NCBI GenBank assembly: GCA_018823885.1
Contig: JAHJHG010000009.1
Location: 783 to 64,782, forward strand
Direction of reading: 5' to 3'
DNA from: Patescibacteria group bacterium
GTDB lineage: Bacteria > Patescibacteriota > Microgenomatia > UBA8517
DNA: 64,000 nucleotides
The position numbers and the translations under genes are program-made. Of this stretch, positions 1,552-58,491 are shown piece after piece. The stretch's first letter is position 1, and each line of letters starts with the position of its first letter. The notes beneath the pieces are model-generated. The model did not search any database. It was not told where the DNA came from and worked only from the letters and a program-made list of their open reading frames with translations.

Positions 1552-3498
1552 TTATTCTAACTTGTGGCTGATATTAATTGAGTAGAGTCTTTCTTCTGTA
1601 ACAATTATTATTTTACCAACTTCTTCAGATACAACCATTCCTCTTGCTTCTTTTATTTTATCCGAAAAGTACTGAGCTTGGTAATTACCCTCCTTGTCGA
1701 CGACAACAATTCTTCCTGTTTCTTTCTCCATCAAGTAAACAAACTTAAGTTCCTCGTTTGTATAAATGGCCGTCGGTCGGGATAGTTGGGGTATGATGTC
1801 CGCAAAGCTTAAAGTATCTTGATTTCCCTTGGTAAATTTAAATACTTTTCCTGTTTCTGAAAGAAACCAGATAGAACCATCAATTGTCCAGTCAAAAATA
1901 TTACTCAAGTCCGGCTCTGTTCCAGCCGTTAGCCAGTCTTGTTTTGAGCCAAAACCACCATCTGCACCTGCGTACCGATAAACCTTGGATGTTCCCCGAT
2001 CCAGCACATAGAAATTGCCGGCATAAGCGGAGATAAGAACGTCTCCTTCCCATTCGCCCTCGACTGCTAACTCTCTTTCGTCAGCAACTTCATAGATATT
2101 TCCATCTGATAACACAAATACTCTGTCAGAATAGGCCGCCACCCCTTTTGCCTCTTTTACTTGGTCGGGTCCAGCCACAATCTCGGTCTTTTTTGTTTCG
2201 ATTTCTATCTCGACTACCTTTTTCCCATCTCTGTCTAAAACATATAGCTTTCCGTCTGAAGCAACCACATCGTCCGCCTTAAAACCATCCGTTAAAATTG
2301 ATAAGTCTAAGAAAAGATCTGATTCAATTGTATATTCACCTAAAACTTGTCCTTCCGATTCTTCAAGAAGGGCAATTAAGTTGTCAAGTTCAGAATCTTC
2401 AACCCCTTCATCTTTAATTTGATAAACAAGTCTTTCTGCATTTCTGAAAAGCTCCCTCGCTCTTTCGGGGTCAAGTGTATAAAGGCCTTGCGCCTCTTCA
2501 AATTCATGTTGGGCTTGCTTAAGTCGATCTTCATAGCGGGCGCGTTCATCACGAACCATCTTTTGTCTTACCCCAAAACCGATGCTTACAACAAGTAAGA
2601 CAACAAGAATTGAACCAATTGAAACCGTAACTTTCCTTTTTTGAACATTAAATTCATCTTCTCCTCGCTGTCGAACATATATTTTCTTTTCTCCTGTCCT
2701 TTTACTAAAAATAGAGGTTAATTTATTCGCCTGTTTTTGGAAAAAAGAGGCCGGTCGATCTTTAGTTTCCTTATCAAAAATCTCTTTGCGTTCTAGTGTG
2801 GTTTTTTCTTCTGGTTCAAATTCCTTATCCGGTCGTGCAAAAATTGCCTGCGTCTTTGAAAACTCGACTAAGACAAGTCCAAAATTTCCCGCCTCTTCTC
2901 TTGAATGAACAGCTGGAGCCAAAGACTCAACCGCTTCATTTATTCCCGAACTTTCAAGGGCTGCTTTTATCACACCTTCGCTCAAAGAACTAAAAACCTT
3001 TTTTGTCCCAAGTAAAAATATGTCTCCTTCTTTGGGATGGCCGGAAGCAGATACCGGTCCATTATCTTTGCTTACCAATATTTTAGCCAACATACCATTT
3101 CTAAAAACAGCTGCCTGTCCGCCACCACCGCAAGCAGTGTAGATAACTCCATTAACTATTGAGGCGGCCGCTATCTCAACATCACCCCAGGTTTCCGAAA
3201 ATTCGCTTATTACCCTCTCTACGGAATCATTGAGAGCATTAAAGGCCGTTTTTTCTGTGCTACCGAAGTATTCCTCATGAAATCTTGTTAAAAGTTCTCT
3301 TCCAGCAACAACATTATCGAGACCTTCAGGGTCAGGGGGTGCTTCACTTTTTTGAGAGGTCGTTGCAATAACAGCCACTAATCTTCCACGAAGCTTTAAT
3401 TTTTCTTCATCGTCTGGGGCAAATTCATGAACTTGGGCCCAACTGGCTTTTCCCGGACTCCCGGTTAATTTAGCTAAATTGATATCTAATTCTGCCAC
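1552..3498 (-). CDS. Hypothetical bitopic membrane protein. Cytoplasmic N-domain, one TM, coiled-coil, then extracytoplasmic repeated YVLD(R) beta-propeller-like repeats.
   Basis: 648 aa ORF. Central hydrophobic segment VTVSIGSILVVLLVVSIGFGV. Recurring YVLDRDG/YVLDRGT repeats in the C-terminal half. Confidence 0.45.
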   Translation of the reverse strand: MAELDINLAKLTGSPGKASWAQVHEFAPDDEEKLKLRGRLVAVIATTSQKSEAPPDPEGLDNVVAGRELLTRFHEEYFGSTEKTAFNALNDSVERVISEFSETWGDVEIAAASIVNGVIYTACGGGGQAAVFRNGMLAKILVSKDNGPVSASGHPKEGDIFLLGTKKVFSSLSEGVIKAALESSGINEAVESLAPAVHSREEAGNFGLVLVEFSKTQAIFARPDKEFEPEEKTTLERKEIFDKETKDRPASFFQKQANKLTSIFSKRTGEKKIYVRQRGEDEFNVQKRKVTVSIGSILVVLLVVSIGFGVRQKMVRDERARYEDRLKQAQHEFEEAQGLYTLDPERARELFRNAERLVYQIKDEGVEDSELDNLIALLEESEGQVLGEYTIESDLFLDLSILTDGFKADDVVASDGKLYVLDRDGKKVVEIEIETKKTEIVAGPDQVKEAKGVAAYSDRVFVLSDGNIYEVADERELAVEGEWEGDVLISAYAGNFYVLDRGTSKVYRYAGADGGFGSKQDWLTAGTEPDLSNIFDWTIDGSIWFLSETGKVFKFTKGNQDTLSFADIIPQLSRPTAIYTNEELKFVYLMEKETGRIVVVDKEGNYQAQYFSDKIKEARGMVVSEEVGKIIIVTEERLYSINISHKLE

Positions 3499-3500
3499 TT

Positions 3501-3728
3501 TTATAAAATAATTAGGGCAAGAACGAATATTACCAAAGAAAATACCAAATGAGAAATACCCAGCATTCTAATCGGTCCTTCAAAGCCTACTTCTAGAGTA
3601 TCGGTCATGAGCTGTATTTGCCTTAATACTACAAAAGCGAAAATACCATAAATTACTAGAGCAAAAAGAACCAACACTTTGGCTATTAGCCAAATTGATA
3701 CTCCAATAATCGGTAATACTTGGTTCAT
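3501..3728 (-). CDS. Small two-TM membrane protein (hypothetical)
   Basis: 75 aa, two hydrophobic helices, 4-nt overlap with the upstream gene. Confidence 0.35.
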   Translation of the reverse strand: MNQVLPIIGVSIWLIAKVLVLFALVIYGIFAFVVLRQIQLMTDTLEVGFEGPIRMLGISHLVFSLVIFVLALIIL

Positions 3729-4423
3729 CTAACTCTCCCTTCTAGTTTCTCTATCTCTTCCTCAATCCTCAGATCTTGTAATATCTTGGCTACCTTATCA
3801 GGATTAGGTACGGCCAAAAAATCAAAGTTGGGCACCTCCGCCGCAGTTTGAACAAATACGTCACCATAATTAAATAACGTTCTAGCTACTCCTCCCATTG
3901 TGTAAGTAACATCCTGGATTTTATCAATATTGGTATCTGATACTTGTTTATATATCAGATTGAAAAAATCGATATCAATAATTCTTTCATCCGTAATAAT
4001 GTTTACATTGAAAAACCAAGTAAGGAAATTCTCCATAAAAAAAGCGGTTGTTATAAGATACCAGCCCAGAATGGCAATTAGTTGAAACTCATCGGGTAAA
4101 AAAGAGAGTAAAGGAAAAATACTTAAAACTGCCGGAGCAACAATCATCAACGCCCCAATAACAATCCAGGAAAAATTAGTCACGGGATGCCTGCGCAACA
4201 AAAGGACAACTTTTTCTTCTTTATCTCTTGTTTCAAAATTAACCTTTTTCGGAAGATAACTAAAAGCCGACAATCTACCTTGAGCTTTCTGTTCAAGTTT
4301 ATACTTTGGACGCCTATGTTTTCCCTCTCTTTTTGCTTTCGAGGCAGACTTTTTCTTAATAGGTTCTTTCTTAGAAGTTAGCTTTTCTTTTTTTGTGTCG
4401 TTAGAAATAAAGATATCCGGCAT
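3725..4423 (-). CDS. Membrane protein with lysine-rich N-terminus, possibly a bPH_2 (membrane-flanked PH domain)-like protein
   Basis: K-rich N-terminal 60 aa, then two TM helices (RRHPVTNFSWIVIGALMIVAPAVL...) followed by a soluble domain. Confidence 0.4.
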   Translation of the reverse strand: MPDIFISNDTKKEKLTSKKEPIKKKSASKAKREGKHRRPKYKLEQKAQGRLSAFSYLPKKVNFETRDKEEKVVLLLRRHPVTNFSWIVIGALMIVAPAVLSIFPLLSFLPDEFQLIAILGWYLITTAFFMENFLTWFFNVNIITDERIIDIDFFNLIYKQVSDTNIDKIQDVTYTMGGVARTLFNYGDVFVQTAAEVPNFDFLAVPNPDKVAKILQDLRIEEEIEKLEGRVR

Positions 4424-6277: not shown

Positions 6278-6988
6278 ATGAAAAAAATAACCATTACACT
6301 CGCCCTATTTTTGTTGATATTAATCTTTGTTCCAAAAAACATTTTTGCACAAGGAACATTTTCCTGCTACCAGCCAACGGCCAGCGTTCCCTGTGTTCCA
6401 GCAAATGTATATTGTGAAGAAGGGTATATCCCCGACACTAGTTATTGTAGTGCAAGGACAAACTCTAATTGCAACAATGTCCCTGCGACAACATGCATAG
6501 AAATACAGGGGCCAGAAACACAAACTGGCTGCTCTTCTGTCAGCACGGGCAGAACATATTGCACAACACAAGCTGCCCCTGGATATGGAGATATAGAAAT
6601 ATACTGTTCTACCAGTGATGAGTGTGAGAGCTATAAAGCAGAGCATCCATTAGAATCATCGGATAGTGAGTTTCCAACCTGTTTTACCGACGGCAAAAAA
6701 GGAATAAATACAGCTATCGGTTGTATCCCGATAGAAGACTCGAATTTGCTGATTGGTTTTATCTTAAAATGGGCCATTGGTGTTGGTGGAGGTATTGCTT
6801 TCCTATTAATCGTCCTTGCAGGTTTTCAAATAATGACCTCATCCGGCAACCCGGATAGATTAAAAGCAGGCCAAGAATTAATGACCTCGGCTATTGCAGG
6901 ATTAATACTTTTGATATTCTCTGTTTTTATATTAAAAATTATTGGAGTTGATATACTAGAATTACCAGGCTTTGGAGGAACACCATGA
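6278..6988 (+). CDS. T4SS pilin-like protein (VirB2/TrbC-type two-TM core) with about 120 aa Cys-rich N-terminal extracellular extension. First member of the paralog array.
   Basis: Signal peptide. At least 11 Cys in residues 30-130. C-terminal TM-SSGNPDRLKAGQEL-TM core shared with downstream paralogs. Stop overlaps the next start (ATGA). Confidence 0.6.
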   Translation: MKKITITLALFLLILIFVPKNIFAQGTFSCYQPTASVPCVPANVYCEEGYIPDTSYCSARTNSNCNNVPATTCIEIQGPETQTGCSSVSTGRTYCTTQAAPGYGDIEIYCSTSDECESYKAEHPLESSDSEFPTCFTDGKKGINTAIGCIPIEDSNLLIGFILKWAIGVGGGIAFLLIVLAGFQIMTSSGNPDRLKAGQELMTSAIAGLILLIFSVFILKIIGVDILELPGFGGTP

Positions 6989-7311
6989 AACTTGCACAAG
7001 ATTTAGAAGAAATTCAAAGTAAGGCATTACCTCAGTTTGAATTCTCGGGAGAACAAGGAGATATTGGAAATGTTGTCTCCAGTCTTATTAATTATCTTTT
7101 TCCATTGGCTGGAATCTTACTTCTTCTCTATCTTATCTATGGCGGATTTAGTCTAATGACCTCGGGTGGAGATCCAAAAGCGGTTCAAGGCGCAAAAAGT
7201 AAAATTACTAGTGCTCTAATTGGTTTCATAATCATTTTTGCGGCCTATTGGATAGTACAAATAGTTGCGTCAATTTTAGGAATCGAGGCAATAACAAATA
7301 TCTTCGGATAG
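6985..7311 (+). CDS. T4SS pilin-like small two-TM protein (paralog 2)
   Basis: Core LMTSGGDPKAVQGAKSKITSALIGFIIIFAAYWIVQ...GI. Confidence 0.65.
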   Translation: MKLAQDLEEIQSKALPQFEFSGEQGDIGNVVSSLINYLFPLAGILLLLYLIYGGFSLMTSGGDPKAVQGAKSKITSALIGFIIIFAAYWIVQIVASILGIEAITNIFG

Positions 7312-7349: not shown

Positions 7350-7670
7350 GTGAATAAATTAGCTGTTGAGATAGGAGAAAAGTTTTTTGGGGAAGGTTCC
7401 AATACACCATTAGCCGAAATCAGTGGGATTGGAACTCTTGTCTCCATTATCGTCAACGCCGCATTTGTTTTGGCAGGTATTATTTTGCTCTTCTTCTTTA
7501 TCTTCGGGGGAATTTCTATGATTGCAGGCGCCGGAAAAGATAATCCAGATCAAGCGGCAAAGGGAAAGCAGGCAATAACTTCTGCTCTTCTTGGTTTTAT
7601 TGTTGTTTTTGCCTCCTATTGGATAGTACAATTAATCGAACTTGTCACAGGAATCATTATTTTAGGATGA
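7350..7670 (+). CDS. T4SS pilin-like small two-TM protein (paralog 3, GTG start)
   Basis: Starts GTGAATAAATTAGC (MNKLA). Core AGKDNPDQAAKGKQAITSALLGFIVVFASYWIVQ. Confidence 0.6.
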   Translation: MNKLAVEIGEKFFGEGSNTPLAEISGIGTLVSIIVNAAFVLAGIILLFFFIFGGISMIAGAGKDNPDQAAKGKQAITSALLGFIVVFASYWIVQLIELVTGIIILG

Positions 7671-8023
7671 ATAAATTAGCAGAAAACAGTCCTTTTGGAT
7701 CCATAAATTTACCAGAAACTATAGAGAATAAATATCCCGGTGGAGTAGAAGGTGGGGCAATAGGAATCTTTCTAAACTGGACTATCAAGGCCCTTATTAT
7801 TGGTGCCGGGGTATATGCTCTCTTTAATCTTGTTCTTGCCGGATATGCTTTCATGTCTGCTGGAGATGATCCCAAAAAAATGGCTGGTGCCTGGGCAAAG
7901 ATATGGCAAACTCTTTTGGGGCTTGCTTTTGCCGCTGGCGCCTTCGTCTTAGCCGCTATATTTGGACAACTGATATTTGGAGATCCAACTTTTATACTTA
8001 ACCCAACAATACCGACACCATGA
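7667..8023 (+). CDS. T4SS pilin-like small two-TM protein (paralog 4)
   Basis: Starts ATGAATAAATTAGC (MNKLA), overlapping the previous stop (ATGA). Core SAGDDPKKMAGAWAKIWQTLLGLAF. Confidence 0.6.
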   Translation: MNKLAENSPFGSINLPETIENKYPGGVEGGAIGIFLNWTIKALIIGAGVYALFNLVLAGYAFMSAGDDPKKMAGAWAKIWQTLLGLAFAAGAFVLAAIFGQLIFGDPTFILNPTIPTP

Positions 8024-8385
8024 ATAAATTAGCTGATATAAACCTGGCGCCCGAGGGAGGATTTAAAGGATTTGGTGCCCTGGGGTTAGAAGAAGGACAG
8101 AGCGCTCCAGCAGTATTTACAAAATTCATCTCCAGCGTTATTGGACTAATGACAATTATCGCCATTATCTGGTTTGTTCTTCTGATGATAATGGGGGCCA
8201 TTGGCATTATTAGTTCGGGGGGAGACAAAGCGGCGTTGGAATCTGCTAAAAAACGAATTACAACCGGAATTCTTGGCTTCGTCGTCGTTATTGCCGCTAT
8301 TTTTATTGTCCAATTAATAGGAAAACTGATAGGAATACCGAATATATTAGATCTGCCTGTCTTGTTAGAAGGAATTCAACAATAG
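8020..8385 (+). CDS. T4SS pilin-like small two-TM protein (paralog 5)
   Basis: Starts ATGAATAAATTAGC (MNKLA), ATGA overlap. Core SSGGDKAALESAKKRITTGILGFVVVIAAIFIVQ. Confidence 0.65.
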   Translation: MNKLADINLAPEGGFKGFGALGLEEGQSAPAVFTKFISSVIGLMTIIAIIWFVLLMIMGAIGIISSGGDKAALESAKKRITTGILGFVVVIAAIFIVQLIGKLIGIPNILDLPVLLEGIQQ

Positions 8386-8726
8386 TGAATTATCTTGCTC
8401 AAGATTCAATAGAAAATCCCGTCTTAGGCCCCTCTTTGCAAACAAAAACCGGTGTTGGGTTTTTCCAAGATCTTTTACCCAGAATGGTCGGTCTGGCTTT
8501 CCTTGTAGGTGTGCTTATCTTTTTCTTTGTCATGATAATGGGGGCGATTCAATGGATCACTTCTGGAGGAGATAAAGCAGGGATCGAGTTAGCCAGAGGA
8601 AAAATAACAAATGCTATTGTCGGAGTGGTTATTCTTCTCTCCCTTTTTGCTCTACTTAAAGTCCTTGAGGACTTTTTTGGAATAAACATACTTGCCCTTG
8701 ACATAGGGCCGCTTATGATTCAATAA
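8385..8726 (+). CDS. T4SS pilin-like small two-TM protein (paralog 6, GTG start overlapping previous stop)
   Basis: Core TSGGDKAGIELARGKITNAIVGVVILLSLF...FGI. Confidence 0.6.
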   Translation: MNYLAQDSIENPVLGPSLQTKTGVGFFQDLLPRMVGLAFLVGVLIFFFVMIMGAIQWITSGGDKAGIELARGKITNAIVGVVILLSLFALLKVLEDFFGINILALDIGPLMIQ

Positions 8727-8736
8727 TATACGCAGA

Positions 8737-9087
8737 ATGCTTAACTTTTTGTATTCAACCGCCGTTCTCGCAGCCGACGACATAAATCTTAGCCCCACAG
8801 GGGAATTTTCGGCTCTTGGTGACTTAACAATTGGCGGAATTGTTTCAGCTTTTATCCGATTAATTCTAGTTGTTGCCGCCTTGGTATTTTTCTTCATTCT
8901 TGTTATCGGAGGAATCAGGTGGATTGCCTCAGGTGGAGATAAGGCTCAAACCGAAACAGCCAGAAATCAAATTACGGCCGCACTTGTTGGATTGGTTATC
9001 GTTTTTGCCGCTTGGGCCATTGTTCAACTAATAAATACCTTCTTCGGTATTGACATTTTCAGTCTTACCCTCCCAACGGCACAATAA
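8737..9087 (+). CDS. T4SS pilin-like small two-TM protein (paralog 7)
   Basis: Core ASGGDKAQTETARNQITAALVGLVIVFAAWAIVQ...FGI. Confidence 0.65.
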   Translation: MLNFLYSTAVLAADDINLSPTGEFSALGDLTIGGIVSAFIRLILVVAALVFFFILVIGGIRWIASGGDKAQTETARNQITAALVGLVIVFAAWAIVQLINTFFGIDIFSLTLPTAQ

Positions 9088-9156: not shown

Positions 9157-9486
9157 ATGAATAAAATTATTAGTACTGTATTGGCTGCTGAAATTGAAAC
9201 AGTGGATGATGTTGCCACACTTCAAGGCTTTGAAGGAGTTTTTGAAAACATAGTAACCATCGTCCTAGGATTTGGAGGTATTATTCTTTTCATCATGCTT
9301 ATAATGGGAGGGTTTCGATTTATAACCGCTGGTGGAGACCCCAAGGCAATCGAAGGTGCAAAAAAAACCTTAACTTATGCTATCGGAGGCATTGTTCTTG
9401 TTGCTCTTTCATTTCTAATCCTCAGATTTATTTCCACCTTTACCGGAGTCGATGTCACTCAATTTAAAATATTTCAAGGAAATTAA
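9157..9486 (+). CDS. T4SS pilin-like small two-TM protein (paralog 8). Likely start at MNKIIS.
   Basis: Core TAGGDPKAIEGAKKTLTYAIGGIVLVALSFLIL...TGV. Confidence 0.6.
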   Translation: MNKIISTVLAAEIETVDDVATLQGFEGVFENIVTIVLGFGGIILFIMLIMGGFRFITAGGDPKAIEGAKKTLTYAIGGIVLVALSFLILRFISTFTGVDVTQFKIFQGN

Positions 9487-9499
9487 CTTCAAAACAAAA

Positions 9500-11869
9500 A
9501 TGCACAAGCTGCCCAAGAAGCCTGTTAATAAAGAATGTTTTTCCCTGATTCTATTGTTTATATTTTTCTTTCTTGCTCTTGGGTTCTTTGTATCGAAAGC
9601 AAAAGCCCAAATCCCAAATCCTCCGGTTCCCTGCGATGAAACACGAAATGATGAGTTTCATTCTTTGAGGCCCTATCAAGCCAGCCCCTGTGATGACAAA
9701 GCGGACACCGCTCTTTTTTGTGGAAATGATTTAATTGTTGCCGATACGATCACTGTTACTAAAAATCAAGCAACATCATGCGAATCTCTATCTAGTGGAA
9801 AGGAAAAGTGTAGTTTTACAACAAGTAACTCAAAAAATATTAGGATTGATTTATCAAGTGCCGATTTTCCTATTCTAGGTAATACCGAAAGTGTCGTAAA
9901 TATTGACAAAGATGCTGATGATTCTGGATTTGATGATGTAGGAAAAACAAATGAATACGTTAGCTGGTATCTAAACGGCACCATAAATCGCGCCGAGTAT
10001 GAGTTTCTAAACCCAAGCGAAAAACAAGACATCAGCAAGCTTATAGATTTTTCTGGCCCCATCAACAAACTTCTTCCATGGGAACAACAAGTAGCATACA
10101 GAATAAACACAATCAAACAAACTGGCGCAACGCGTCATGATCAAATAATTGCTTGTACTGTTGCGGGTGTTCCCGTTCCTTGCTATCACCAAGGACTACT
10201 CGAAATAATCGATACAAAACACCGACTTTCTGACTGGGAAGGGAAAATCACAAATTTACCAACACTGCCTGGTACTTGGAACGAAAGGGTACCTCCTCAA
10301 AGAAAAGATTTTGAAAATTTTCTAAACTACTGGGAAGCTTACAGGGAGTGGAGGGGCAATAGTTGTGGCCAATTTACAATTCCAATAATAAACAAACGTG
10401 TTCTTCTCTGCTCTCCTATTGACAATCCACTTAGGCCAAATTACTGGGCGGATCTATTTCCCTATGTTCCTTTTTCTTCAACGGAAGACCAGCTTGGGTT
10501 TGTTGAAACACAAACCTTGACCGCTTATTCTCCATCGGAAGATGTTACTTTAAAAGAAGTTTTATTTGATAATCAGGAACCAGCGGAACTCTTCTTTGCT
10601 CACACAGAAGAAGTTGCAGAGTTGGCTAGTATTTTGCAAAAAACGTTCGCTCCACAAGGTGCGGAAAACAATCTGTCATTTTCAGGTGTTTCTCCTACTG
10701 AATACTGTGATCTTGTAAATGTCCGTACAAACGAAGGGGATGATCTTTTTGCCGGAGAAATAGGTGGAGTACTTTCATACACCGCTGAATTTACGTGCGA
10801 ACTTGAACCAGGAGCAAGCAATGCTTGCGAAAGCGCAGGAGGAGAATGCATAAATACTCCCAGTTGTATCCGTGTCGGCAAAGGAACTGTGAATGGAGGC
10901 TCTGGGTGCAATACAGTAAACGAGACCTGCTGTGCACGAGAAGAGCCATTGTCTGGACAGGAGTGCACAAAAGAAATATACGCTAATTTGTCTGTTATAA
11001 CAAAAACCCCTAAGGTGAATGAAATTTGGGCAAGAACCGTAGCTGGACCATCATCAATTTTTAAAAGAATATTTCCCAAGATAGGAGAGGGTGGGGCTAT
11101 CTTGGGATTATTAGATATTCCCGGCGCAACAAACGTTACCTATTCAGGTGATGGCCTTGTCTACGCTGGCAATCCAGGAAACGAACGTTCTGGAGAATCT
11201 GCTGAACTATACTTCCCGCACGTTGGAGGGGTATCTGAATATTTCTTGAAAGGAATTCAAACTATTCTTCGACCAAAAGGCTTTGGGGAACAAATTCTTT
11301 CTGGTCAACCAGGAACAGAGTCGCCCGTACAAGAATGTAATCAAGATATTTCTAATTCGGCAATCCCCTCAAAATATCTGGGAGCATTCAAAGAAAACTT
11401 CATTCGCATGGCGAGAGATTGGAGTGAGAAGACTGAATGCCAGGGGCTTGAAAATACGATGGCGGATGAATGTTATAACGACGTTGTTAAGCGCTCTGTT
11501 GATAAAGGAGTAAATCCTGCCTTCACCTTAACCATCTGGCTTAATGAAACTGGTGCCAGTAATTATTGCGAGAGTGGGTCAACGGCTCAGGACTTTGGTA
11601 TTAGAATTCCATCTATCTTCCAAAACTTTGGAGAACAACTTGATCATTTTTTGGGTTTGCCTTTCAGTGGTACTTATGTCTCTTGCTCCAATGAAGCTGG
11701 TTGGGATAATAGAATACATGCTTTTCTCAGTAGATTTCGATCAGGCGGTTGTGATCCAACGGACAGTGAAGGAAATATCTATTACAACCACATTAAAGAA
11801 ACAACTTGGCCTTGGGTATCAAATTGTTCAAATCTCCCTAGTTGGCCAACAGACACGAGTTGTCCTTAA
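9500..11869 (+). CDS. Large secreted Cys-rich protein of unknown function (about 790 aa). Candidate pilus-associated adhesin or tip protein.
   Basis: Signal peptide MHKLPKKPVNKECFSLILLFIFFFLALGFFVSKAKAQ. More than 30 Cys including a dense cluster CESAGGECINTPSCIRVGKGTVNGGSGCNTVNETCCA. No TM after the signal peptide. Sits between the pilin array and the VirB6-like gene. Confidence 0.55.
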   Translation: MHKLPKKPVNKECFSLILLFIFFFLALGFFVSKAKAQIPNPPVPCDETRNDEFHSLRPYQASPCDDKADTALFCGNDLIVADTITVTKNQATSCESLSSGKEKCSFTTSNSKNIRIDLSSADFPILGNTESVVNIDKDADDSGFDDVGKTNEYVSWYLNGTINRAEYEFLNPSEKQDISKLIDFSGPINKLLPWEQQVAYRINTIKQTGATRHDQIIACTVAGVPVPCYHQGLLEIIDTKHRLSDWEGKITNLPTLPGTWNERVPPQRKDFENFLNYWEAYREWRGNSCGQFTIPIINKRVLLCSPIDNPLRPNYWADLFPYVPFSSTEDQLGFVETQTLTAYSPSEDVTLKEVLFDNQEPAELFFAHTEEVAELASILQKTFAPQGAENNLSFSGVSPTEYCDLVNVRTNEGDDLFAGEIGGVLSYTAEFTCELEPGASNACESAGGECINTPSCIRVGKGTVNGGSGCNTVNETCCAREEPLSGQECTKEIYANLSVITKTPKVNEIWARTVAGPSSIFKRIFPKIGEGGAILGLLDIPGATNVTYSGDGLVYAGNPGNERSGESAELYFPHVGGVSEYFLKGIQTILRPKGFGEQILSGQPGTESPVQECNQDISNSAIPSKYLGAFKENFIRMARDWSEKTECQGLENTMADECYNDVVKRSVDKGVNPAFTLTIWLNETGASNYCESGSTAQDFGIRIPSIFQNFGEQLDHFLGLPFSGTYVSCSNEAGWDNRIHAFLSRFRSGGCDPTDSEGNIYYNHIKETTWPWVSNCSNLPSWPTDTSCP

Positions 11870-11919
11870 ATGGTGTGTTGTTGACCCTACATTCGTATTG
11901 TATGATTAAAATAATAAGT

Positions 11920-13488
11920 ATGTTCAAGAAAGTTATTGTCTCGTTTATATTAGTCTTCTTGCTTTTTGCTGCATTAGTAACTCCCAATGCAAAAGCTCAG
12001 GGAGGAGGAAATTGGTATAATCAATCTTTTGAAGAGTGGTCTGCAAAGGTTTTTGATGACAGTAACCCTCAAGAAATATTTGGGGAAAGATATACCTATG
12101 CGCAGGTAACTTGGATCTTACACTCTCTACAGGCTTTTGCGTATGGAGACGATTTGATTAATTGTGTTAATGTTTCAAACGGAGATTTAAATGAAATTAA
12201 AGATTGTGTGAAAGGACTTCAAGAATCAAGTTCATTTATTAATAGCCCCGTATTGGCGATTGGTGCTTTTGGAGATTCTGTTCTTTCTCTTCATCCGGCG
12301 TCAGGTGTTGAATATGTCGCGGACACTGCTTCCAGGCTAAAAATAATTCCAAGTGCTTATGCGCAAGGAATTGGATTTGAAGGATTACAGCCGGCCCTAA
12401 AAGCGTGGAAGGTAACACGCAATATGACCTATGCTCTTTCTATTCTCGCCGTGATCGTTATGTCTTTTATGATTATGTTTAGGGTAAAAATTTCACCACA
12501 AGTAGTAATCACTGTTCAATCTGCACTCCCTAAAATTATTATTGCTTTAATACTTATCACTTTTTCTTATGCCATTGCTGGCTTTATTATTGATATTTCC
12601 TATCTTCTTCTGGGAATCATTGCTGCATTAGTTACATCCTCCGGGGTGGATATTTCTAGTTTGAACATGATACCGTTTTTCAACACATTCGTAATGGGTT
12701 CCGGCCTTTTTTGGTCTCTCATACTAACGCAGTTGTTATTTTTATTATTGTTCGGGATAACTGGAGCGCTAGTAGGAGCTCTTTTCGCCGTTCCCACTGG
12801 AGGATTGTCAATTGCCATTGGGGGTGGTATTGGAGCTATTCTTTTTCTCCTACTCATTGTTCTGATGATTTTTGCCAGCATAAAAATTCTCTGGCTTTTG
12901 GTAAAAACCACCATCAACATCCTTCTTCTTATTATCGCTGCTCCAATAATGATTTTAGCAGGAACGTTTTCGTCAGGAATAGGGTTTGGACCTTGGTTAA
13001 GACAACTTGTAGCCAATGTTGCCGTATTTCCAATGGTTCGAATCATGTTGTTCTTAGCCCATTATTTCTTTTGGGGAATGCGCATGACACAAGAGGTCGA
13101 TCTTGCCGGGTGGACTGCCGTCAATCCTTTGGGAATTCTTCCTTCTGGAGGAGAAATGGCTGTCCTGCCCGGCTATCTTCCTTTTAGCGTCGGAACCGGA
13201 CTTTTAGGTTGGATTCTCTCTTTCGGCGTGTTTTTCTTAACACCTAAGATCGGTGATATAATCAAGTCCATGATTGAAGGCAAACCATTCGCTTATGGAA
13301 CGGCTATCGGAGAGGCTGTTGGACCAATAGGCGCCGCTTGGGGATCAACCCCTGCACGTCTTGGCAAAGAAGCTGTTATTAGAGGGGGTGGTACAGAAAT
13401 TGCAAGCAGACTGAGAACAAAAGGGAAACTAGCAACTCAAATAGGAGACCAGCTTGACAATATTCTTAATTCAAAAAGGGGTTCTTAG
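11920..13488 (+). CDS. VirB6/TrbL-like polytopic membrane protein (T4SS inner-membrane channel component)
   Basis: Signal peptide, about 160 aa extracytoplasmic domain, then at least 6 TM helices and a Gly-rich C-terminal tail. Position and topology typical of VirB6/TcpH. Confidence 0.55.
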   Translation: MFKKVIVSFILVFLLFAALVTPNAKAQGGGNWYNQSFEEWSAKVFDDSNPQEIFGERYTYAQVTWILHSLQAFAYGDDLINCVNVSNGDLNEIKDCVKGLQESSSFINSPVLAIGAFGDSVLSLHPASGVEYVADTASRLKIIPSAYAQGIGFEGLQPALKAWKVTRNMTYALSILAVIVMSFMIMFRVKISPQVVITVQSALPKIIIALILITFSYAIAGFIIDISYLLLGIIAALVTSSGVDISSLNMIPFFNTFVMGSGLFWSLILTQLLFLLLFGITGALVGALFAVPTGGLSIAIGGGIGAILFLLLIVLMIFASIKILWLLVKTTINILLLIIAAPIMILAGTFSSGIGFGPWLRQLVANVAVFPMVRIMLFLAHYFFWGMRMTQEVDLAGWTAVNPLGILPSGGEMAVLPGYLPFSVGTGLLGWILSFGVFFLTPKIGDIIKSMIEGKPFAYGTAIGEAVGPIGAAWGSTPARLGKEAVIRGGGTEIASRLRTKGKLATQIGDQLDNILNSKRGS

Positions 13489-15809
13489 CGCCTTTCTTCT
13501 TCGTATCTTCGCTTTGGAGGAGGTTTGACAACAGCCGGCCCTATACTGACTCCCATATTTCCAACATCTTTTCTCGTCTCATTGTAACCAAGCTGCAAGT
13601 TACTAACTTCTTCCTTGCCAGCAATTTCTGCTAGTCTGGCAAATATTTTTGTATAAAATCGAAGTAAATGTACCATTCCTTGAGAATATCCTTTTACTCC
13701 CCCATACTCATCTGGCATACTAGAAAGCTTTGTTTTCCACCAAGACATTTCTACCGCCCATTTTTGCTTCTCTCCTTTTTCAAAACCACGGGCGCCGACA
13801 ATGTCATATTTGTCCGCAACTTTTAACGATATCAGCAATGGCACCAAGCCCATTGTCAACACTGCTTTAGATTGTTTCTCGTCCCTGGTTCCCAAGTCTG
13901 CCCTTTTTAAAAGCTCTCTTATATTATCTACGTCTCCAAAGAAATCCTTAAATTGCCCTTCGTTCGCTGCAGACTCTGGATCCACCATTACTGTCACATA
14001 CCTTACTATTTGGCCTATTGTTATCATCCAACGGTATAGCGCTTGGTCTCCCATTTTGACCCACTTAAACTCAGACTTCGCCTTACCTGCGCACAATTCA
14101 TCCCAAGCACTTGGATCTCCCTCTTCAATGTCGCGCTTTCCTGAAAAGGAAATTGTATTCAGAAAGTTCAGAGAAGCTATTTCAGGAGGGAAAAAAATAG
14201 GTATAACTATCGGATTGCCAGTTTCGTCTTTGTAGGATGTTTCCCAATACCAAAGTAGCTCCCTTAAACCCTCTTTTGCCTCTTGATCCCAACCACTCTC
14301 TTCCCACAACTCTTTAAAGGCGCGTTGAAGCTTTTGGTCCTTTTCAGCAACTGCCTCTAAATATTCCGGTATCCAATCAGGGCGTTCACTAAGCAGTTTC
14401 TTTCTAAATTCGTCGCTCATTGGAAGAAACATTCCTATTGTTCGCGGTTTTCCTTCATTGTCAGCAATAAAATCTCTCCAATAAGCCACACTAATGGCGT
14501 CTGTCGCTACTGTTGTTGCTCCACCAACCCGCCTCCTAGCTACCTTAAGACTTTTCTTTCCATTTTCTTCTACTTCCCTTAGTGCGTACTTCCATCCCCA
14601 TCCTAAGCGAGTACTTACAAAGTGTCCCCAATCCTCTACTATTTCAGCTCTAACAACCTCCCTCGCAAGTGCCTGATTCAAGTTTGCGTTCATACTACGC
14701 CACATTTTTACTCCTTGCTCCGCCCAACCCCTTACTCCTTCCGCTAGTGCTTTTGCTTTGGCCACGTCGCCAGTGGCAATATAGTCCTGCAGTGCTTCTT
14801 TTACGGTTCGTTTTTTGTGTCGATCAGTAGGCATCACTAATAAAGTCTCCATTGCAGCGATGTATAAACGTTTCTTTTCTTCTATGCTGCCCATTGCGTA
14901 CCAGTTTAGAAGAGCTCTGGGCACTACCCCATCCTGCTCGTGAATTAACCAACCATCTTCATTTCTGAGTTTTTTATTTTCATTTGGATATTTTTTCTCT
15001 AATTCTCTTTCTTTTTCCTCAACAAACTCACGTTGCTCTTTGTCTTCAAATACCGTACGTATAAATTGAATTTCTATATCGCTGAGCGTCCTTTGCCCTT
15101 CGGCATCCTTCATAAATGAAGATTCTTTCTTGCTCATTTGGCTTACTTCTGCTACTGCCATTATCCAGAAAGTGCACTCGTCTTGATATTTGACAGCCTT
15201 TTCTCTTGTTTCTTCTCTCCCTTCTTCTAACAACGATGTTTCTTCTTGCTTAGCAACACTCATCCCTGGGAGCTCTTTCTGAAAAGACCCTTCATAAAAG
15301 GAAGCAGTCGGGTCACTGCGCATTCTCTCCCTAACCCAATAAAGCATATTGTGCCAATCATAAAACTTATCTAGAACTCCGCCCATCCCCTCTAATACTT
15401 TTTGGGTGTTCTCTCCCCACGTCAAATCAACCGCCAATCTATCTAGCCACCGCTTAGCCTCGCCTTCTGCCCAATCCTCATCCCGTGCTGTTCTTACTGC
15501 ATTGATAGCCGTGCTGAACCACATTTCTTGAGTCCTAGAATCATAAGGGTAAGGATTCTTGAACCTCATCTCAAGGTCAAGTGTTTTTTCCAGTTCCCTC
15601 ACCTGAGCCTTCATTAGTCTTTCGTGCGTGGAATACAGTTTTTCTTGTGTTTTCTCCTTGTCTATAAACCCAATTTCTTTCCACTTTTTGAGTTCATCTA
15701 TCATATCCAAAAGGTTTGAGTTAGCAAAACCATACCGCTCGCGAGTTTCTCCTCGCCTCAACGACTCACTTCTTGGATCTAACATCAGGTCTTGATTTTT
15801 CTCTGTCAT
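13485..15809 (-). CDS. Large soluble Trp/Glu-rich hypothetical protein (774 aa), encoded on the opposite strand inside the T4SS locus
   Basis: Long uninterrupted ORF. No TM or signal peptide. No recognisable catalytic motif. Confidence 0.45.
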   Translation of the reverse strand: MTEKNQDLMLDPRSESLRRGETRERYGFANSNLLDMIDELKKWKEIGFIDKEKTQEKLYSTHERLMKAQVRELEKTLDLEMRFKNPYPYDSRTQEMWFSTAINAVRTARDEDWAEGEAKRWLDRLAVDLTWGENTQKVLEGMGGVLDKFYDWHNMLYWVRERMRSDPTASFYEGSFQKELPGMSVAKQEETSLLEEGREETREKAVKYQDECTFWIMAVAEVSQMSKKESSFMKDAEGQRTLSDIEIQFIRTVFEDKEQREFVEEKERELEKKYPNENKKLRNEDGWLIHEQDGVVPRALLNWYAMGSIEEKKRLYIAAMETLLVMPTDRHKKRTVKEALQDYIATGDVAKAKALAEGVRGWAEQGVKMWRSMNANLNQALAREVVRAEIVEDWGHFVSTRLGWGWKYALREVEENGKKSLKVARRRVGGATTVATDAISVAYWRDFIADNEGKPRTIGMFLPMSDEFRKKLLSERPDWIPEYLEAVAEKDQKLQRAFKELWEESGWDQEAKEGLRELLWYWETSYKDETGNPIVIPIFFPPEIASLNFLNTISFSGKRDIEEGDPSAWDELCAGKAKSEFKWVKMGDQALYRWMITIGQIVRYVTVMVDPESAANEGQFKDFFGDVDNIRELLKRADLGTRDEKQSKAVLTMGLVPLLISLKVADKYDIVGARGFEKGEKQKWAVEMSWWKTKLSSMPDEYGGVKGYSQGMVHLLRFYTKIFARLAEIAGKEEVSNLQLGYNETRKDVGNMGVSIGPAVVKPPPKRRYEEERR

Positions 15810-16742: not shown

Positions 16743-17786
16743 ATGGATCAACAACACCCTATACCGCAACAAATATCTTCCTACCAGTTTAAGTTGGTAG
16801 GAAATATGACTTTAAAGCAATTTTTCCAAATAGCGGGAGGAGCTCTGTTTTCTCTTCTTTTCTATGCATCAAATCTTCACCCCGTTATCAAATGGCCTCT
16901 TGTAATATTTTTTGCTCTTTTTGGAGCCGCTCTTGCTTTTCTTCCCTTTGAAGAAAGACCTCTTGAGCAATGGGTTATTTCATTTTTCAAAGCAGTCTAT
17001 ACTCCTACTACCTATTTTTGGGGGAAAACGACCAAGCCTCCTGTGTTTTTTAAAGAAGAAGCGTCTGTGCCCCAAGAGCATGTTGTTGCCCCACATGGAG
17101 AGAAAGAATTGGAAAAATACTTGCAGAGTCTTCCAGGGCGAGGCACTTCCGTATTTTCCAAACTCGAAGAGGCTGAAAATACTTTCCTTTCAAAACTTAC
17201 TAGGCTTTTCGGAAGTGGCGGAACAAGAGCGATTGAAACCCCCTCTTCAGCCGCTATGGCTCAACATACCCCGCAAGAGAAACAGCAAGAAATGACTGTG
17301 CCGCAAAACATACCAACTGTTATTCCGCAAGGATATAAGCCCAGGGTTGTGGTTGAAGAAAAAAAACCACTACTTCAAAATCAACAGCCAGCAGAAGCAA
17401 AAACTTCCACCGTTGCCAAGACGTTCACTGCTCAAGAAGTGATATCGGGACAAGCCGCCCAGTTCTCCGTCAATGCAGCTCCTCCACTTCCCCCTGAGAA
17501 GCCTAATACACTAACTGGTCAGGTTGTCGATGCTGGTGGCAAAATCATTGAAAGTGCAATACTCGAAATCAGAGATGTTGCCGGCCGACCTGTTAGAGCC
17601 GTCAAAACAAACAAAGTGGGGCACTTCATAATTGTTACCCCATTACAAGATGGGCGATACGAAATTATAAGCGAGAAGGAAGGGCTTAATTTTGAGCCAT
17701 TAACCTTTGAAGCAACCGGGAGCATTATTCCACCAATTGCGATAAGGTCTAAAAATAAAATTCCCACACCAATAATAATTAATTAA
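16743..17786 (+). CDS. Membrane protein with VirB3/PrgI-like N-terminal two-TM hairpin, Pro/Gln-rich linker and C-terminal carboxypeptidase-regulatory-like (Ig-like) domain
   Basis: N-terminus MTLKQFFQIAGGALFSLLFY...VIFFALFGAALAFLPFEERPLEQW. C-terminus GQVVDAGGKIIESAILEIRDVAGRPVRAVKTNKVGHFIIVTPLQDGRYEI. Directly upstream of the VirB4 ORFs. Confidence 0.45.
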   Translation: MDQQHPIPQQISSYQFKLVGNMTLKQFFQIAGGALFSLLFYASNLHPVIKWPLVIFFALFGAALAFLPFEERPLEQWVISFFKAVYTPTTYFWGKTTKPPVFFKEEASVPQEHVVAPHGEKELEKYLQSLPGRGTSVFSKLEEAENTFLSKLTRLFGSGGTRAIETPSSAAMAQHTPQEKQQEMTVPQNIPTVIPQGYKPRVVVEEKKPLLQNQQPAEAKTSTVAKTFTAQEVISGQAAQFSVNAAPPLPPEKPNTLTGQVVDAGGKIIESAILEIRDVAGRPVRAVKTNKVGHFIIVTPLQDGRYEIISEKEGLNFEPLTFEATGSIIPPIAIRSKNKIPTPIIIN

Positions 17787-17787
17787 T

Positions 17788-18447
17788 ATGAAAATTCCTT
17801 TTATTAGCATACCAGATAAGCCAATATCAGCAATTTCTCAAAAACATTTGCCGATTGCCGATATTGTTGATGACCTGGTTTTGTACAAAGATGGAGGTGC
17901 GGCAATTATCTTGGAAACTACCTCCCTTAACTTTGGTCTTTTGTCCGAAAAGGAGCAACAAGCTGTTATTGCCGCCTATGCTGCTCTTCTCAACTCTCTT
18001 TCTTTTGCTATCCAAATAGTTATTCGCTCTCAAAGAAAAGATATCTCGAGCTATATGAAATATCTTGATGAGGCTTCAAACAAAATTCAAAACCCAAAGC
18101 TTATTGAAATCATGACGGGTTACAAAAACTTTGTTTCTGAAACGATAAAGAAAAAAAATGTTCTGGGAAAAAGATTTTTTATTGTCATTCCGTTTAGCGC
18201 TTTAGAGCTTGGTGTAACGAAATCTGTTCTTTCGATTGCAAAAAAAGGCCCACTTCCATACCCCAAAACCTACGCAATTAAAAAAGCCAAAGTTTCTCTC
18301 TATCCAAAAAGAGACCATCTTATCAGACAAGCCGGGAGATTAAGTATAAAACTAAAACAACTCTCCACTGCGGAATTAATAGAGCTTTTCTATGACATTT
18401 ATAACCCAGAAATGCCAGCAGTTAAAAGCAAGGAGGACACCGTATAG
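17788..18447 (+). CDS. VirB4/TrbE N-terminal-domain-like protein (219 aa). Either a separately encoded N-domain or the 5' part of a split virB4.
   Basis: LPIADIVDDLVLYKDGGAAIILE..NFGLLSEKEQQAVIAAYAALLNSL..IQIVIRSQRKD aligns with the VirB4 N-terminal block (LPY.GHLSDHIVLLEDGS...FELEE.E.RN....NTLLRN...VSIYAHLVRH). Stop lies 1 nt before the ATG of the ATPase ORF. Confidence 0.45.
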   Translation: MKIPFISIPDKPISAISQKHLPIADIVDDLVLYKDGGAAIILETTSLNFGLLSEKEQQAVIAAYAALLNSLSFAIQIVIRSQRKDISSYMKYLDEASNKIQNPKLIEIMTGYKNFVSETIKKKNVLGKRFFIVIPFSALELGVTKSVLSIAKKGPLPYPKTYAIKKAKVSLYPKRDHLIRQAGRLSIKLKQLSTAELIELFYDIYNPEMPAVKSKEDTV

Positions 18448-18448
18448 T

Positions 18449-57034: not shown

Positions 57035-58033
57035 ATGGATCCGGTAATAGTGTTGGTAATTATTCTGGGGGGGCTTATTATTCTTGGTTTCCTGATTAAC
57101 AAACGACTAGTTGATTTAGCGGAAGGACAGAAGCCTTCAGATGAACTTTTGGAGATTATAAAGATGCTTCAGGAAGGTTCCAAAGAAGATAGGAAGGTGT
57201 TACTCTCCTCACTCCAGAAAAATACACAGTCGCTGAATGAGCGTCTTGACGCGGCCTCAAGGGTGATTGGACAGGTGCAAAGAAATGTTGGGGAAATGAG
57301 CGAGATAGGTCGCGGGATGAAAGATTTACAAGAATTTTTGAGAAGTCCAAAGATTCGTGGAAATGTTGGGGAGCAGGTTTTAAAAGAATTGCTTTCTCAA
57401 ATTCTTCCGAAGAAATCCTTTAACTTACAACATACTTTTAAATCTGGCGAGAAAGTTGATGCCGCCATAATAACTTCGGCAGGTATAATTCCCGTTGACT
57501 CTAAATTTCCGATGGAGAATTTCAGAAAGATGACGTCGGCAGAATCGGAGACGGAAAAGAAAACCCACAGTAAGCAATTTGAAAGGGATGTTAAAAGGCA
57601 TATTGACGTGATTTCAAAAAAATACATATTGACGGAAGAAGGAACAATTGATTATGCACTGATGTACATACCGGCAGAAAGTGTATATTACGAAGTTGTT
57701 AATAGTCCGACACTTTTTGATTACGGGGCCGCCAAAAGAGTGCTCCCTGTTTCTCCGACCACTTTTTATGCATACCTGAGGGCAATATTAATGAGTTTCG
57801 AAGGGCAAAAGATCGAGCAGAAAGCACGAGAAATACTGGCGGCGATTAGGGCGATTCAAAAAGATTATAATAAAGTAGAAGACAATATTTCTAAGCTCCA
57901 AAGGCATTTGAACAATGCTTATAATATGATGAGCAACGTGTTGACGTCCTTTACTCAATTGGGTCAGAAAATTACGTCAACGCAGAGTTTAGGCCATGGA
58001 GTTAAGGAGGAGGTTAAAAAACTAAAGGAATGA
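57035..58033 (+). CDS. rmuC: DNA recombination protein RmuC
   Basis: N-terminal TM plus coiled-coil. RmuC block IPVDSKFPMENF. Confidence 0.65.
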   Translation: MDPVIVLVIILGGLIILGFLINKRLVDLAEGQKPSDELLEIIKMLQEGSKEDRKVLLSSLQKNTQSLNERLDAASRVIGQVQRNVGEMSEIGRGMKDLQEFLRSPKIRGNVGEQVLKELLSQILPKKSFNLQHTFKSGEKVDAAIITSAGIIPVDSKFPMENFRKMTSAESETEKKTHSKQFERDVKRHIDVISKKYILTEEGTIDYALMYIPAESVYYEVVNSPTLFDYGAAKRVLPVSPTTFYAYLRAILMSFEGQKIEQKAREILAAIRAIQKDYNKVEDNISKLQRHLNNAYNMMSNVLTSFTQLGQKITSTQSLGHGVKEEVKKLKE

Positions 58034-58491
58034 AAATACAAAAAGGGTTTACTTTAGTTGAAATACTGGTTGTTATTGTTCTTCTTGCAATTATTGCGGT
58101 TATTGTCATTGCAACCATTAATCCTCTTGAGCAATTACGGCGCGCCAAAGATTCCGCCCGCGAACAAAATGCGGAAACCTTGCTCAGTGCGATAAATAGA
58201 TATCAGGTGACACGCGAAGAGAACCCTGAAGTACTTGACTCGACAGATTCTATTTCCTGCGAAGAGATTGCTCAGGGGGCTCCTGTTTACGAAGCGGATT
58301 CTTTAGAGAGTGAGCTATCATCTTGGTTCTTAAAACACATTACACAGACGGGTTCGGAGATTTATGTAGGTTTTAATGAAGAAGGAAATGTCAAAATTTG
58401 CTATCAAGTCGAGTCTTCTGTTAGTAAATCCAAAATTTCCGATGGAGGATGTAGTGTTTCTCCTTTTTTCTACATGTGTCTTCCAAGATAG
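58030..58491 (+). CDS. Type IV pilin / pseudopilin (prepilin N-terminal methylation motif)
   Basis: MKIQKGFTLVEILVVIVLLAIIAVI (G|FTLVE cleavage/methylation site). Start overlaps the rmuC stop. Confidence 0.75.
   Translation: MKIQKGFTLVEILVVIVLLAIIAVIVIATINPLEQLRRAKDSAREQNAETLLSAINRYQVTREENPEVLDSTDSISCEEIAQGAPVYEADSLESELSSWFLKHITQTGSEIYVGFNEEGNVKICYQVESSVSKSKISDGGCSVSPFFYMCLPR

Follow-up and report, generated by a model that had tools for sequence, protein, structure and literature searches.

The first member of a conserved Patescibacteria pilin array carries a hypervariable, putatively disulfide-rich ectodomain

Introduction

A large part of bacterial diversity belongs to the Patescibacteria, whose cultivated members live attached to host cells. 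Here we describe a type IV secretion system (T4SS) locus in a 64,000 nt stretch of DNA from a member of this group (Microgenomatia; assembly GCA_018823885.1, contig JAHJHG010000009.1, positions 783 to 64,782), which is called the window in the following and has a G+C content of 39%. All positions refer to this window. The locus includes a tandem array of eight genes for VirB2-like pilins. We focus on the first of them, which encodes a protein of 236 amino acids (aa) with a cysteine-rich region between its signal peptide and its pilin core.

The T4SS of Patescibacteria comprise arrays of 2-11 VirB2-like pilins, and Microgenomatia are particularly rich in such arrays (Quinonero-Coronel et al. 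2025, PMC12102498). In Southlakia epibionticum, a cultivated and genetically tractable Saccharibacterium, growth on the host depends on the T4SS genes and the series of pilins, all of which are essential (Wang et al. 2023 Cell, PMC10633639). The literature that we searched regards the members of an array as divergent copies of about 25% identity that are interchangeable, and it suggests a role in antigenic variation or in adaptation to the host. A 2025 review considers a pilus in the monoderm Patescibacteria T4SS intriguing but unproven (PMC12857230). None of these three publications mentions differences in N-terminal domains, cysteines or signal peptides among array members, and our literature searches found no prior description of cysteine-rich T4SS pilins in the candidate phyla radiation.

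The first pilin combines a signal peptide, a cysteine-rich region and a two-helix core

The focal protein is an exact match to MBU0776688.1, listed in NCBI as 'pilin [Patescibacteria group bacterium]'. Pfam family PF18895 (T4SS_pilin) matches residues 158-221, in the C-terminal third of the protein, with 29.4 bits (gathering score 26.6; profile positions 8-70/71), and homologs of the protein likewise carry precomputed PF18895 assignments. Two hydrophobic helices are connected by a short polar basic loop (SSGNPDRLKAGQ) and preceded by an export signal, as in other VirB2-like proteins, and core genes of the T4SS lie 10-12 kb further downstream, within a block of conserved synteny. By these features the protein belongs to the PF18895/VirB2-like family and to a Patescibacteria pilin array; this much is already known, and the protein is annotated as a pilin.

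Read from its sequence, the N-terminus (MKKITITLALFLLILIFVPKNIFA/QG, the slash marking the predicted cleavage site) is a classical Sec signal peptide that is probably cut after IFA24. Orthologs keep the MKK start and an A-x-A-like site followed by Q, V or I. The positive-inside rule predicts an N-out/C-out topology for the core, whose mean identity to the query is 79.5% over 98 homologs. An initial annotation of the window had proposed a signal peptide followed by a cysteine-rich domain ahead of the pilin core, and this order was borne out. Our data support the view that the extension is real and exported, with a cleavable signal peptide before it and a two-helix core of N-out/C-out topology behind it.

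Beyond helix 2, at its outer end, the protein closes with a tail with the motif D-I-L-x-L-P-G-F-G (6944-6985), which is conserved in the first pilins of many species. Judged by its context the tail is not a sortase signal; it could be a processing or contact motif.

The extension contains conserved cysteines and a confidently predicted module

All 12 cysteines of the focal protein (residues 30, 39, 46, 57, 65, 73, 85, 95, 110, 116, 135 and 149) lie between the predicted cleavage site and the first hydrophobic helix. Against a background of 0.7% cysteine in the open reading frames (ORFs) of the window with at least 200 aa, 12 cysteines in 125 residues correspond to a binomial p of ~1e-10. The initial annotation had counted at least 11 cysteines, quoting a peptide that spans residues 30-73, in an extension of 120 aa. 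This length is a fair description, as about 110 aa of the mature protein precede a hairpin formed by Cys135 and Cys149 and about 130 aa precede the first transmembrane helix.

A search of 5.8 billion proteins yielded 1341 homologs, of which the best 120 were inspected; alignments of 36 and of 99 sequences were built. Many of these best 120 homologs span 96-100% of the query, and their lengths range from 174 to 298 aa. The number of cysteines is even in 111 of 118 homologs (p ~2e-25), the commonest counts being 8, 12, 14, 18 and 20. It is also even in 69 of 79 independently retrieved genome loci, where some of the odd counts are due to a crude choice of start codons. The closest relative of the focal protein (P0002, 79% identical, from locus L085) retains all 12 cysteines. 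Since the counts are even in so many homologs, the cysteines of the ectodomain are almost certainly paired as disulfides, in line with the disulfide-rich domain on a pilin core that was initially proposed. No genes for Dsb, MdbA or VKOR proteins were found within the 64-kb window.

Three parts can be distinguished in the ectodomain (Table 1). The first, module M1 (residues 25-75), has six cysteines, four of which (C30, C46, C57 and C65) are kept in at least 90% of 99 homologs, at a mean identity to the query of 30%. In two AlphaFold predictions, one of the full protein and one of residues 25-152 alone, M1 reached a predicted local distance difference test (pLDDT) score of 92-96, with 93-95 at residues 30-70 in the full model. 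The second part consists of the four-cysteine module M2 and an acidic linker (residues 76-133). M2 is found in only about half of the homologs, and the zone as a whole has a mean identity of 22%, a variable length and 0-14 further cysteines among homologs. Its pLDDT is 51-80, with values of about 51-57 at residues 80-110 in the full model. The third part is the two-cysteine hairpin just outside helix 1 (residues 134-152; mean identity 70%), with the consensus C135 ... G-I-(N/D)-T-A-I-G-C149-I-P. C149 is invariant, C135 is present in 98 of 99 homologs, and the hairpin is retained even in orthologs that lack the extension.

AlphaFold2 with the 99-sequence alignment predicted helices at residues 155-187 and 192-221 and a beta-hairpin at 134-151. 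When the ectodomain was predicted again from an alignment cropped to residues 25-152, the features of the first model were reproduced. The fold search proposed in the initial annotation returned no significant match. With the full model Foldseek found only non-significant helical-hairpin matches in the PDB (type III secretion needles, CnrX, and the Aeropyrum pernix conjugation pilus 8dfu with an E value of 3.2), and with the ectodomain model the best E values were 2.9 against the PDB and 0.43 against BFVD. The ectodomain matched no Pfam or NCBIfam family, and the family profile aligned with the sequences of the PDB only by chance, to RNase A. No profile or fold match was obtained in Pfam or the PDB to known small disulfide-rich domains (EGF, knottin, granulin, CBM-type, defensin-like and others).

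The outer modules vary between species on a conserved core

In order to compare the first pilin across species, one genome per GTDB species was scanned, which yielded 80 loci, and 79 first-pilin genes were analysed. The titles of the loci include Woesebacteria, Microgenomates, Amesbacteria, Beckwithbacteria, Shapirobacteria and Gottesmanbacteria, together with many metagenome-assembled genomes (MAGs) labelled 'uncultured Gammaproteobacteria'. These MAG records, as well as one 'Alphaproteobacteria' and one 'Bathyarchaeia' record (L005-L007, L011, L013 and others), carry a locus of the Microgenomatia type, and their titles are evidently taxonomic placeholders or mislabels.

Across the 79 loci the number of cysteines in the first pilin ranges from 2 to 32, and between 19 and 397 residues precede the TAIGC motif. 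The ectodomains belong to visibly unrelated sequence types (QGTxxC..., ECCP..., CGxxGxxCC repeats, DCEIASWDENTRNLQVC...), and 23 of the first pilins (about 29%) have no extension and only the two cysteines of the hairpin. The focal protein is itself a mosaic, and individual modules recur in different combinations: homolog P0003 matches M1 alone, without M2, and P0005 matches M2 alone and has a first module of the ECCP type. P0005 and P0007 share M2 and have a different type of first module. These comparisons show that, from one species to another, the two outer modules are reshuffled, exchanged, enlarged or missing, at a core that stays about 80% identical. Single-linkage BLAST clustering of the ectodomains was set aside, since the cysteine-rich composition links nearly everything. 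When ten orthologous ectodomains of diverse type were searched for lectin or adhesin domains in Pfam, the only match was a sub-threshold one to the Ig-like CarboxypepD_reg (P0069).

Poor conservation of the region in orthologs, or its absence, had been named in the initial annotation as a sign of a spurious extension. The region is indeed poorly conserved and is missing from 23 of the 79 loci. The extension is nevertheless not spurious, because the signal peptide, the even number of cysteines and the confident fold are retained where it is present; the hypervariability is therefore that of a real accessory domain.

We further calculated the ratio of nonsynonymous to synonymous substitution rates (dN/dS) by the method of Nei and Gojobori for the query and P0002. 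The ratio was 0.51 for M1, 0.38 for M2 with the linker and 0.056 for the hairpin and core, at dS values of 0.3-0.8, which are high but usable. Relative to silent change the ectodomain thus evolves 7-9 times faster than the core. These values indicate that the ectodomain is constrained, with all 12 cysteines kept, and that the core is under strong purifying selection.

Residues 25-134 were also compared with 1.84 billion cluster representatives by phmmer. Only two proteins were found, P0003 (by M1) and P0005 (by M2), both of them pilins of the focal family. As no relative other than pilins was found, the idea of a module borrowed from another protein family is unsupported at the level of sequence. 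One locus (L039, CAZMSJ010000001.1) has three tandem cysteine-rich pilins of the first type (301, 302 and 280 aa with 22, 16 and 18 cysteines) ahead of the seven short pilins, a case in which the display subunit has been multiplied and which is rare.

The array is a fixed set of one cysteine-bearing and seven short pilins

A search of the window with the core profile returned precisely the eight pilin ORFs of the array and nothing else. The seven short paralogs contain 0-1 cysteine each, and a full signal peptide is confined to the first pilin, whose extracytoplasmic N-terminus is long; the contrast drawn in the initial annotation therefore stands. The short pilins have 25-35 acidic residues at their N-terminus instead, and these acidic tails could cross the membrane. 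They open with a mini-leader (MNKLA/E, MKLA/Q or MLNFLYSTAVLAA/DD; in orthologs MLINKMLA/Q and MNLLA/Q), which echoes the c-region IFA/QG of the focal protein and may represent a shared processing site.

This layout is not peculiar to the window. Most of the ~80 genome loci have one cysteine-bearing pilin of variable length followed by seven pilins of about 105, 105, 117, 123, 120, 113 and 95 aa with essentially no cysteine, and the array opens with the cysteine-bearing pilin in 78 of 79 loci. In L001 and L004 the best match to any of the eight window pilins is the pilin of the same position (45-91% identity), and the positional pairs with L085 are 60-97% identical. Positional orthology of this kind shows that the array is an old ordered set of eight distinct subunits and not a series of recent interchangeable copies. 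The fixed 1+7 order favours division of labour over simple antigenic variation as the reason for the array.

Pilin 7 is the most conserved member, with 97% aa identity to the closest relative, a dN/dS of 0.03 and 91% identity to its counterpart in L004, and it is a candidate for the main structural subunit. It also shows a weak match to the Mbov_0395 family (NF045849; E 6e-6, below the cutoff). Pilins 2, 3 and 8 fit the pilin profile better than the first pilin (39 versus 29 bits), and paralog 2 matches Pfam TrbC (E 3e-4).

A proposed role of the first pilin and its alternatives

With about even confidence, we favour the view that the focal protein is a specialised, most likely low-copy VirB2-like pilin, in which a conserved assembly core carries an ectodomain with a lineage-specific surface function, most likely the recognition of a partner or host. 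Structures of the F, T and archaeal conjugative pili have established that VirB2-type pilins turn their termini outward in the filament. By analogy, the first pilin would be exported by Sec and its signal peptide cut after IFA24; both ends of the helical hairpin would come to lie outside and the positively charged loop SSGNPDRLKAGQ in the cytoplasm, the arrangement of VirB2, TraA and CedA1. Disulfides would then form outside the cell from the six pairs of cysteines. Because both termini would be outside and point outward, the ectodomain of about 12 kDa would project from the surface of the cell or filament, where disulfides can form; that a full signal peptide is restricted to this paralog fits such a display. 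In an assembled filament the loop would line the lumen. The core would serve the shared task of docking into the T4SS or pilus assembly, and the ectodomain would supply the lineage-specific function, most likely recognition of the surface of a partner or host cell. The subunit itself would be present in low copy, as a cap, an initiator or a minor subunit.

Several observations favour a low-copy role. If each subunit of a VirB2-type helix carried an ectodomain of 250-400 aa, as found in orthologs, there would hardly be room for them all; pilin 7 is more conserved and several paralogs fit the pilin profile better, and in a system without a VirB5 homolog no protein is assigned to the distal position. 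A lineage-specific role in specificity is suggested because the ectodomain is the fast-evolving, modular part of a highly conserved protein. This is the pattern expected of the specificity determinant that the initial annotation had proposed. The tip location put forward there would be plausible.

Other observations weigh against our view. Neither Pfam nor Foldseek recognised an adhesin, a lectin or any other known fold or family in the focal ectodomain. As the ectodomain is absent in 23 of 79 species, it is dispensable for the core function. All dN/dS values are below 1, so they do not demonstrate positive selection, and dS approaches saturation. The packing argument is based on an estimate of 660-1000 square angstroms of surface per subunit from the geometry of the F pilus, which may not apply here, and a major structural subunit could be expected to have a core of equally high conservation. 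As yet no Patescibacteria T4SS has been observed to form a pilus (PMC12857230), so that 'filament' is itself an inference. Finally, the adjacent cysteine-rich protein of about 800 aa (see below) is an equally good adhesin candidate and a rival for the distal component.

The protein might instead remain in the membrane, its core serving as an anchor or as a part of the T4SS base or platform (e.g., as a partner of the VirB6-like protein) and its ectodomain as a cell-surface receptor or wall-contact domain. VirB2-type pilins are known to form pools within the membrane. A conserved protein-protein contact is suggested by the invariant 'TAIGCIP' hairpin of Cys135 and Cys149 and by the extreme conservation of the core, and both the dispensable ectodomain (29% of species) and the lack of an observed pilus (PMC12857230) would fit such a function. 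The homology to pilins and the presence of seven further pilins in the array argue against it. Moreover, the pilin array is essential in the cultivated relative, and the authors of that study, as well as the field review, read the array as a possible pilus. We consider a membrane-resident role unlikely.

Rather unlikely is also that the first pilin is the major, or one major, subunit of a filament. Every subunit would then carry the cysteine-rich domain, and these domains would form an outer sheath, like the outer domains of flagellins, which varies between species to evade phages, predators or host defences and not to bind a target. The core of the first pilin is among the most conserved of the eight (92% identity to its nearest relative, dN/dS 0.056), its gene is the first of the operon, and the outward-facing termini of VirB2-type pilins agree with a sheath; hypervariability fits evasion as well as binding. 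By our rough estimate from the F pilus, however, the orthologous extensions of ~250-400 aa in L069 and L082 would exceed the surface available per subunit. Pilin 7 is still more conserved, the better profile fit lies with pilins 2, 3 and 8, and a 1+7 set that is fixed and non-redundant points to subunits with separate tasks.

VirB2-family pilins (TraA, TrbC, VirB2) are known for long leaders and extra processing. The cysteine-rich region could accordingly be a long propeptide or intramolecular chaperone that is removed before assembly, like the leaders of TraA and TrbC, which would leave a mature pilin resembling the short first pilins; the 23 orthologs that function with nothing ahead of the hairpin are consistent with this. 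A canonical signal-peptide cleavage site is already present ahead of the domain, however, and no conserved second cleavage motif is visible before C135. A propeptide would also need neither a conserved even number of cysteines nor a confidently folded module nor the shuffling of modules, and we regard this explanation as very improbable. That the extension arose from a wrong start codon or a chimeric contig is effectively refuted, as the ATG at 6278 is the earliest start codon in the open frame of 236 codons, the MKK signal peptide also opens the orthologs, 14 independently assembled contigs from several datasets encode the identical protein, and many homologs align over nearly the full length; nothing in our analysis speaks for such an artefact.

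Going beyond the low-copy pilin that we favour, the eight non-redundant pilins could together build a heteromeric T4SS filament or stalk, with the first pilin as the distal cap and the shuffled modules as the host-range determinant of obligate episymbionts. Type II secretion, with its major and minor pseudopilins, would offer an analogy to such a filament. We put this scheme forward with low confidence. If true, it would be a new T4SS architecture, in a monoderm, and the type of ectodomain would predict the host to which a given uncultivated lineage attaches.

The ectodomain described here is a good candidate for the part of the apparatus that makes contact. To a specialist an extra domain on a pilin is not surprising by itself. 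It is the combination of a near-invariant core with a swappable, disulfide-stabilised domain that gives a handle on the contacts of the essential and enigmatic Patescibacteria T4SS and a concrete candidate for partner recognition in uncultivated Microgenomatia. Pilin arrays should be reread as an ancient ordered set of eight rather than as the interchangeable duplicates expected for antigenic variation. The ectodomains are small, independently folding and extremely diverse, which makes them practical for expression and binding screens, and they may be useful as host-association markers in metagenomes.

Comparison with known pilins and pilus-associated proteins

The array shares with the VirB2-like arrays described for Patescibacteria the PF18895 core, tandem divergent pilins, the presence in Microgenomatia and the location of PrgI, TrsD and VirB4 near dnaA; as in those arrays, no relaxase was seen in the window. 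It differs from the published picture in its fixed 1+7 positional orthologs, of which only the first has a hypervariable ectodomain and the invariant TAIGCIP hairpin. Compared with the literature that we searched, four features are new: a subfamily of pilins at the first position that is recognised by the invariant Cys...TAIGCIP hairpin, the ectodomain of this subfamily, which is hypervariable, modular and disulfide-rich and is missing in ~29% of species, the confinement of cysteines and of the full signal peptide to the first array member, and the 1:1 positional orthology of all eight pilins.

With VirB2, TraA, TrbC and the archaeal CedA1 and TedC the focal protein has in common a small hydrophobic hairpin of two helices around a short basic loop, the presence of a signal or leader peptide and the genetic linkage to VirB4, VirB3 and VirB6. 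Those pilins have 60-120 aa and no folded extra domain, and the host considered here is a monoderm. Neither by sequence nor by fold did the focal protein match a solved pilin significantly, 8dfu being among the best non-significant matches of the core. The Mbov_0395 family of pilin-like conjugal transfer proteins (NF045849) of a Mycoplasma integrative and conjugative element likewise consists of small VirB2-like proteins of a monoderm, MPF-FATA-type system, and pilin 7 matches it weakly. The focal protein itself does not match it, and we know of no cysteine-rich domain in that family.

The initial annotation had suggested a VirB5-like role. The likeness to VirB5, TraC and CagL lies in the proposed role only, i.e., in being exported, surface-exposed, variable, possibly distal and in contact with the target. 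Such proteins are soluble; they consist of a three-helix bundle to which a globular appendage is added, and they lack a transmembrane hairpin. Membership in the VirB5/TraC/TrbJ group was rejected, because no VirB5-family Pfam match was obtained at E <= 0.1 and no VirB5 structure was among the Foldseek matches in the PDB. A VirB5 fold was rejected as well, as the predicted ectodomain is rich in beta-hairpins with short helices and is joined to a two-helix membrane core. 'VirB5-like' can thus be kept as a functional analogy only.

Type IV pilins and flagellins resemble the focal protein in combining a conserved assembly core with a disulfide-stabilised or outer variable region for specificity or antigenicity. 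In contrast to type IV pilins the focal protein has no N-methylation motif and no prepilin leader, and fold and secretion machinery are unrelated. Identity as a type IV pilin was rejected on the basis of the missing N_methyl match, the missing motif (G, cleavage, F or M, then xxxE) and the classical Sec signal peptide.

The T4SS locus and its neighbouring genes

The features of the locus are listed in Table 1. It is the chromosomal, origin-proximal, Gram-positive-type (MPF-FATA-like) T4SS described for Patescibacteria. We compared the gene order with that of loci L001, L003, L004 and L085, whose first pilins are 45-79% identical to the query. The shared order is SmpB, a ~620-650-aa protein, DUF5657, a ~200-230-aa protein and SpoIID on the opposite strand, then the pilins, followed by a ~780-820-aa protein and a ~494-558-aa polytopic protein; PrgI lies slightly further on in L001 and L085. 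In the window, VirB4 is followed by a protein with a weak CHAP domain and then by dnaN and dnaA. Scans for promoters and terminators around the array performed no better than shuffled controls.

Table 1. Features of the first pilin and of the T4SS locus (positions within the window; residues refer to the focal protein; a slash marks a predicted cleavage site)
Feature	Position	Strand	Basis
First pilin of the array, 236-aa VirB2-like pilin with Cys-rich ectodomain	6278..6988	+	ORF, PF18895, NCBI identity
Sec-type signal peptide (predicted), residues 1-24, MKK + hydrophobic run + IFA/QG	6278..6349	+	sequence reading
Module M1, residues 25-75, 6 Cys: QGTFSC..C..AN..C..GY.PD..YC..C..C	6350..6502	+	alignment, AlphaFold
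Module M2 and acidic linker, residues 76-133, 4 Cys: GCSSVSTGRTYC...IYCSTSDEC	6503..6676	+	alignment
2-Cys beta-hairpin, residues 134-152, C135...GINTAIGC149IP, just outside helix 1	6677..6733	+	alignment, AlphaFold
Two-helix hydrophobic pilin core, helices 155-187 and 192-221, loop SSGNPDRLKAGQ, tail DILELPGFGGTP	6734..6985	+	PF18895, AlphaFold
Seven short VirB2-like paralogs, essentially Cys-free	6985-7311, 7350-7670, 7667-8023, 8020-8385, 8385-8726, 8737-9087, 9157-9486	+	PF18895, core profile
805-aa exported Cys-rich protein, 27 Cys, directly after the array	9452..11869	+	synteny
548-aa polytopic membrane protein, VirB6 candidate by position only	11842..13488	+	synteny, counterparts ~494-600 aa
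774-aa ORF, no family match	13485-15809	-	26% identity to same-position gene (655 aa) in L085
PrgI/VirB3-like	16743-17786	+	Pfam PrgI
TrsD-like	17788-18447	+	NCBIfam TrsD
VirB4 ATPase	18392-20410	+	Pfam TraG P-loop, CagE_TrbE_VirB
Upstream block: ~648-aa protein, DUF5657 (75 aa), ~232-aa bPH_2-like membrane protein, then SpoIID	1552-4423	-	conserved in L001, L003, L004, L085

The 805-aa protein behind the array has counterparts of 720-1300 aa with 18-51 cysteines that always follow the array across loci and precede a polytopic protein of ~550 aa. It evolves fast (57% identity to its closest relative) and matched nothing in Pfam, NCBIfam or the PDB. A kinship with the ectodomain of the first pilin was rejected, as there is no similarity between them. 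The 548-aa polytopic protein, for which searches of Pfam, NCBIfam and the PDB gave no match either, is likely a divergent VirB6, a candidate by its position only; VirB6 was reported to be scarce in Microgenomatia. The TrsD-like protein resembles the N-terminal part of VirB4, and its gene is located directly upstream of VirB4 and overlaps it, which fits the MPF-FATA-like make-up reported for Patescibacteria. In the upstream block the 648-aa protein has a match to the contractile-injection-system family CIS12 (E 8e-7) that is far below threshold.

The genes that flank the 774-aa ORF are 70-85% identical to those of L085, and the ORF marks a hypervariable slot in the T4SS locus. About 50 kb from the array, at 58030-58491 on the forward strand, the window encodes a genuine type IV pilin with an N_methyl motif (E 7e-8), and the genome therefore holds both kinds of pilin.

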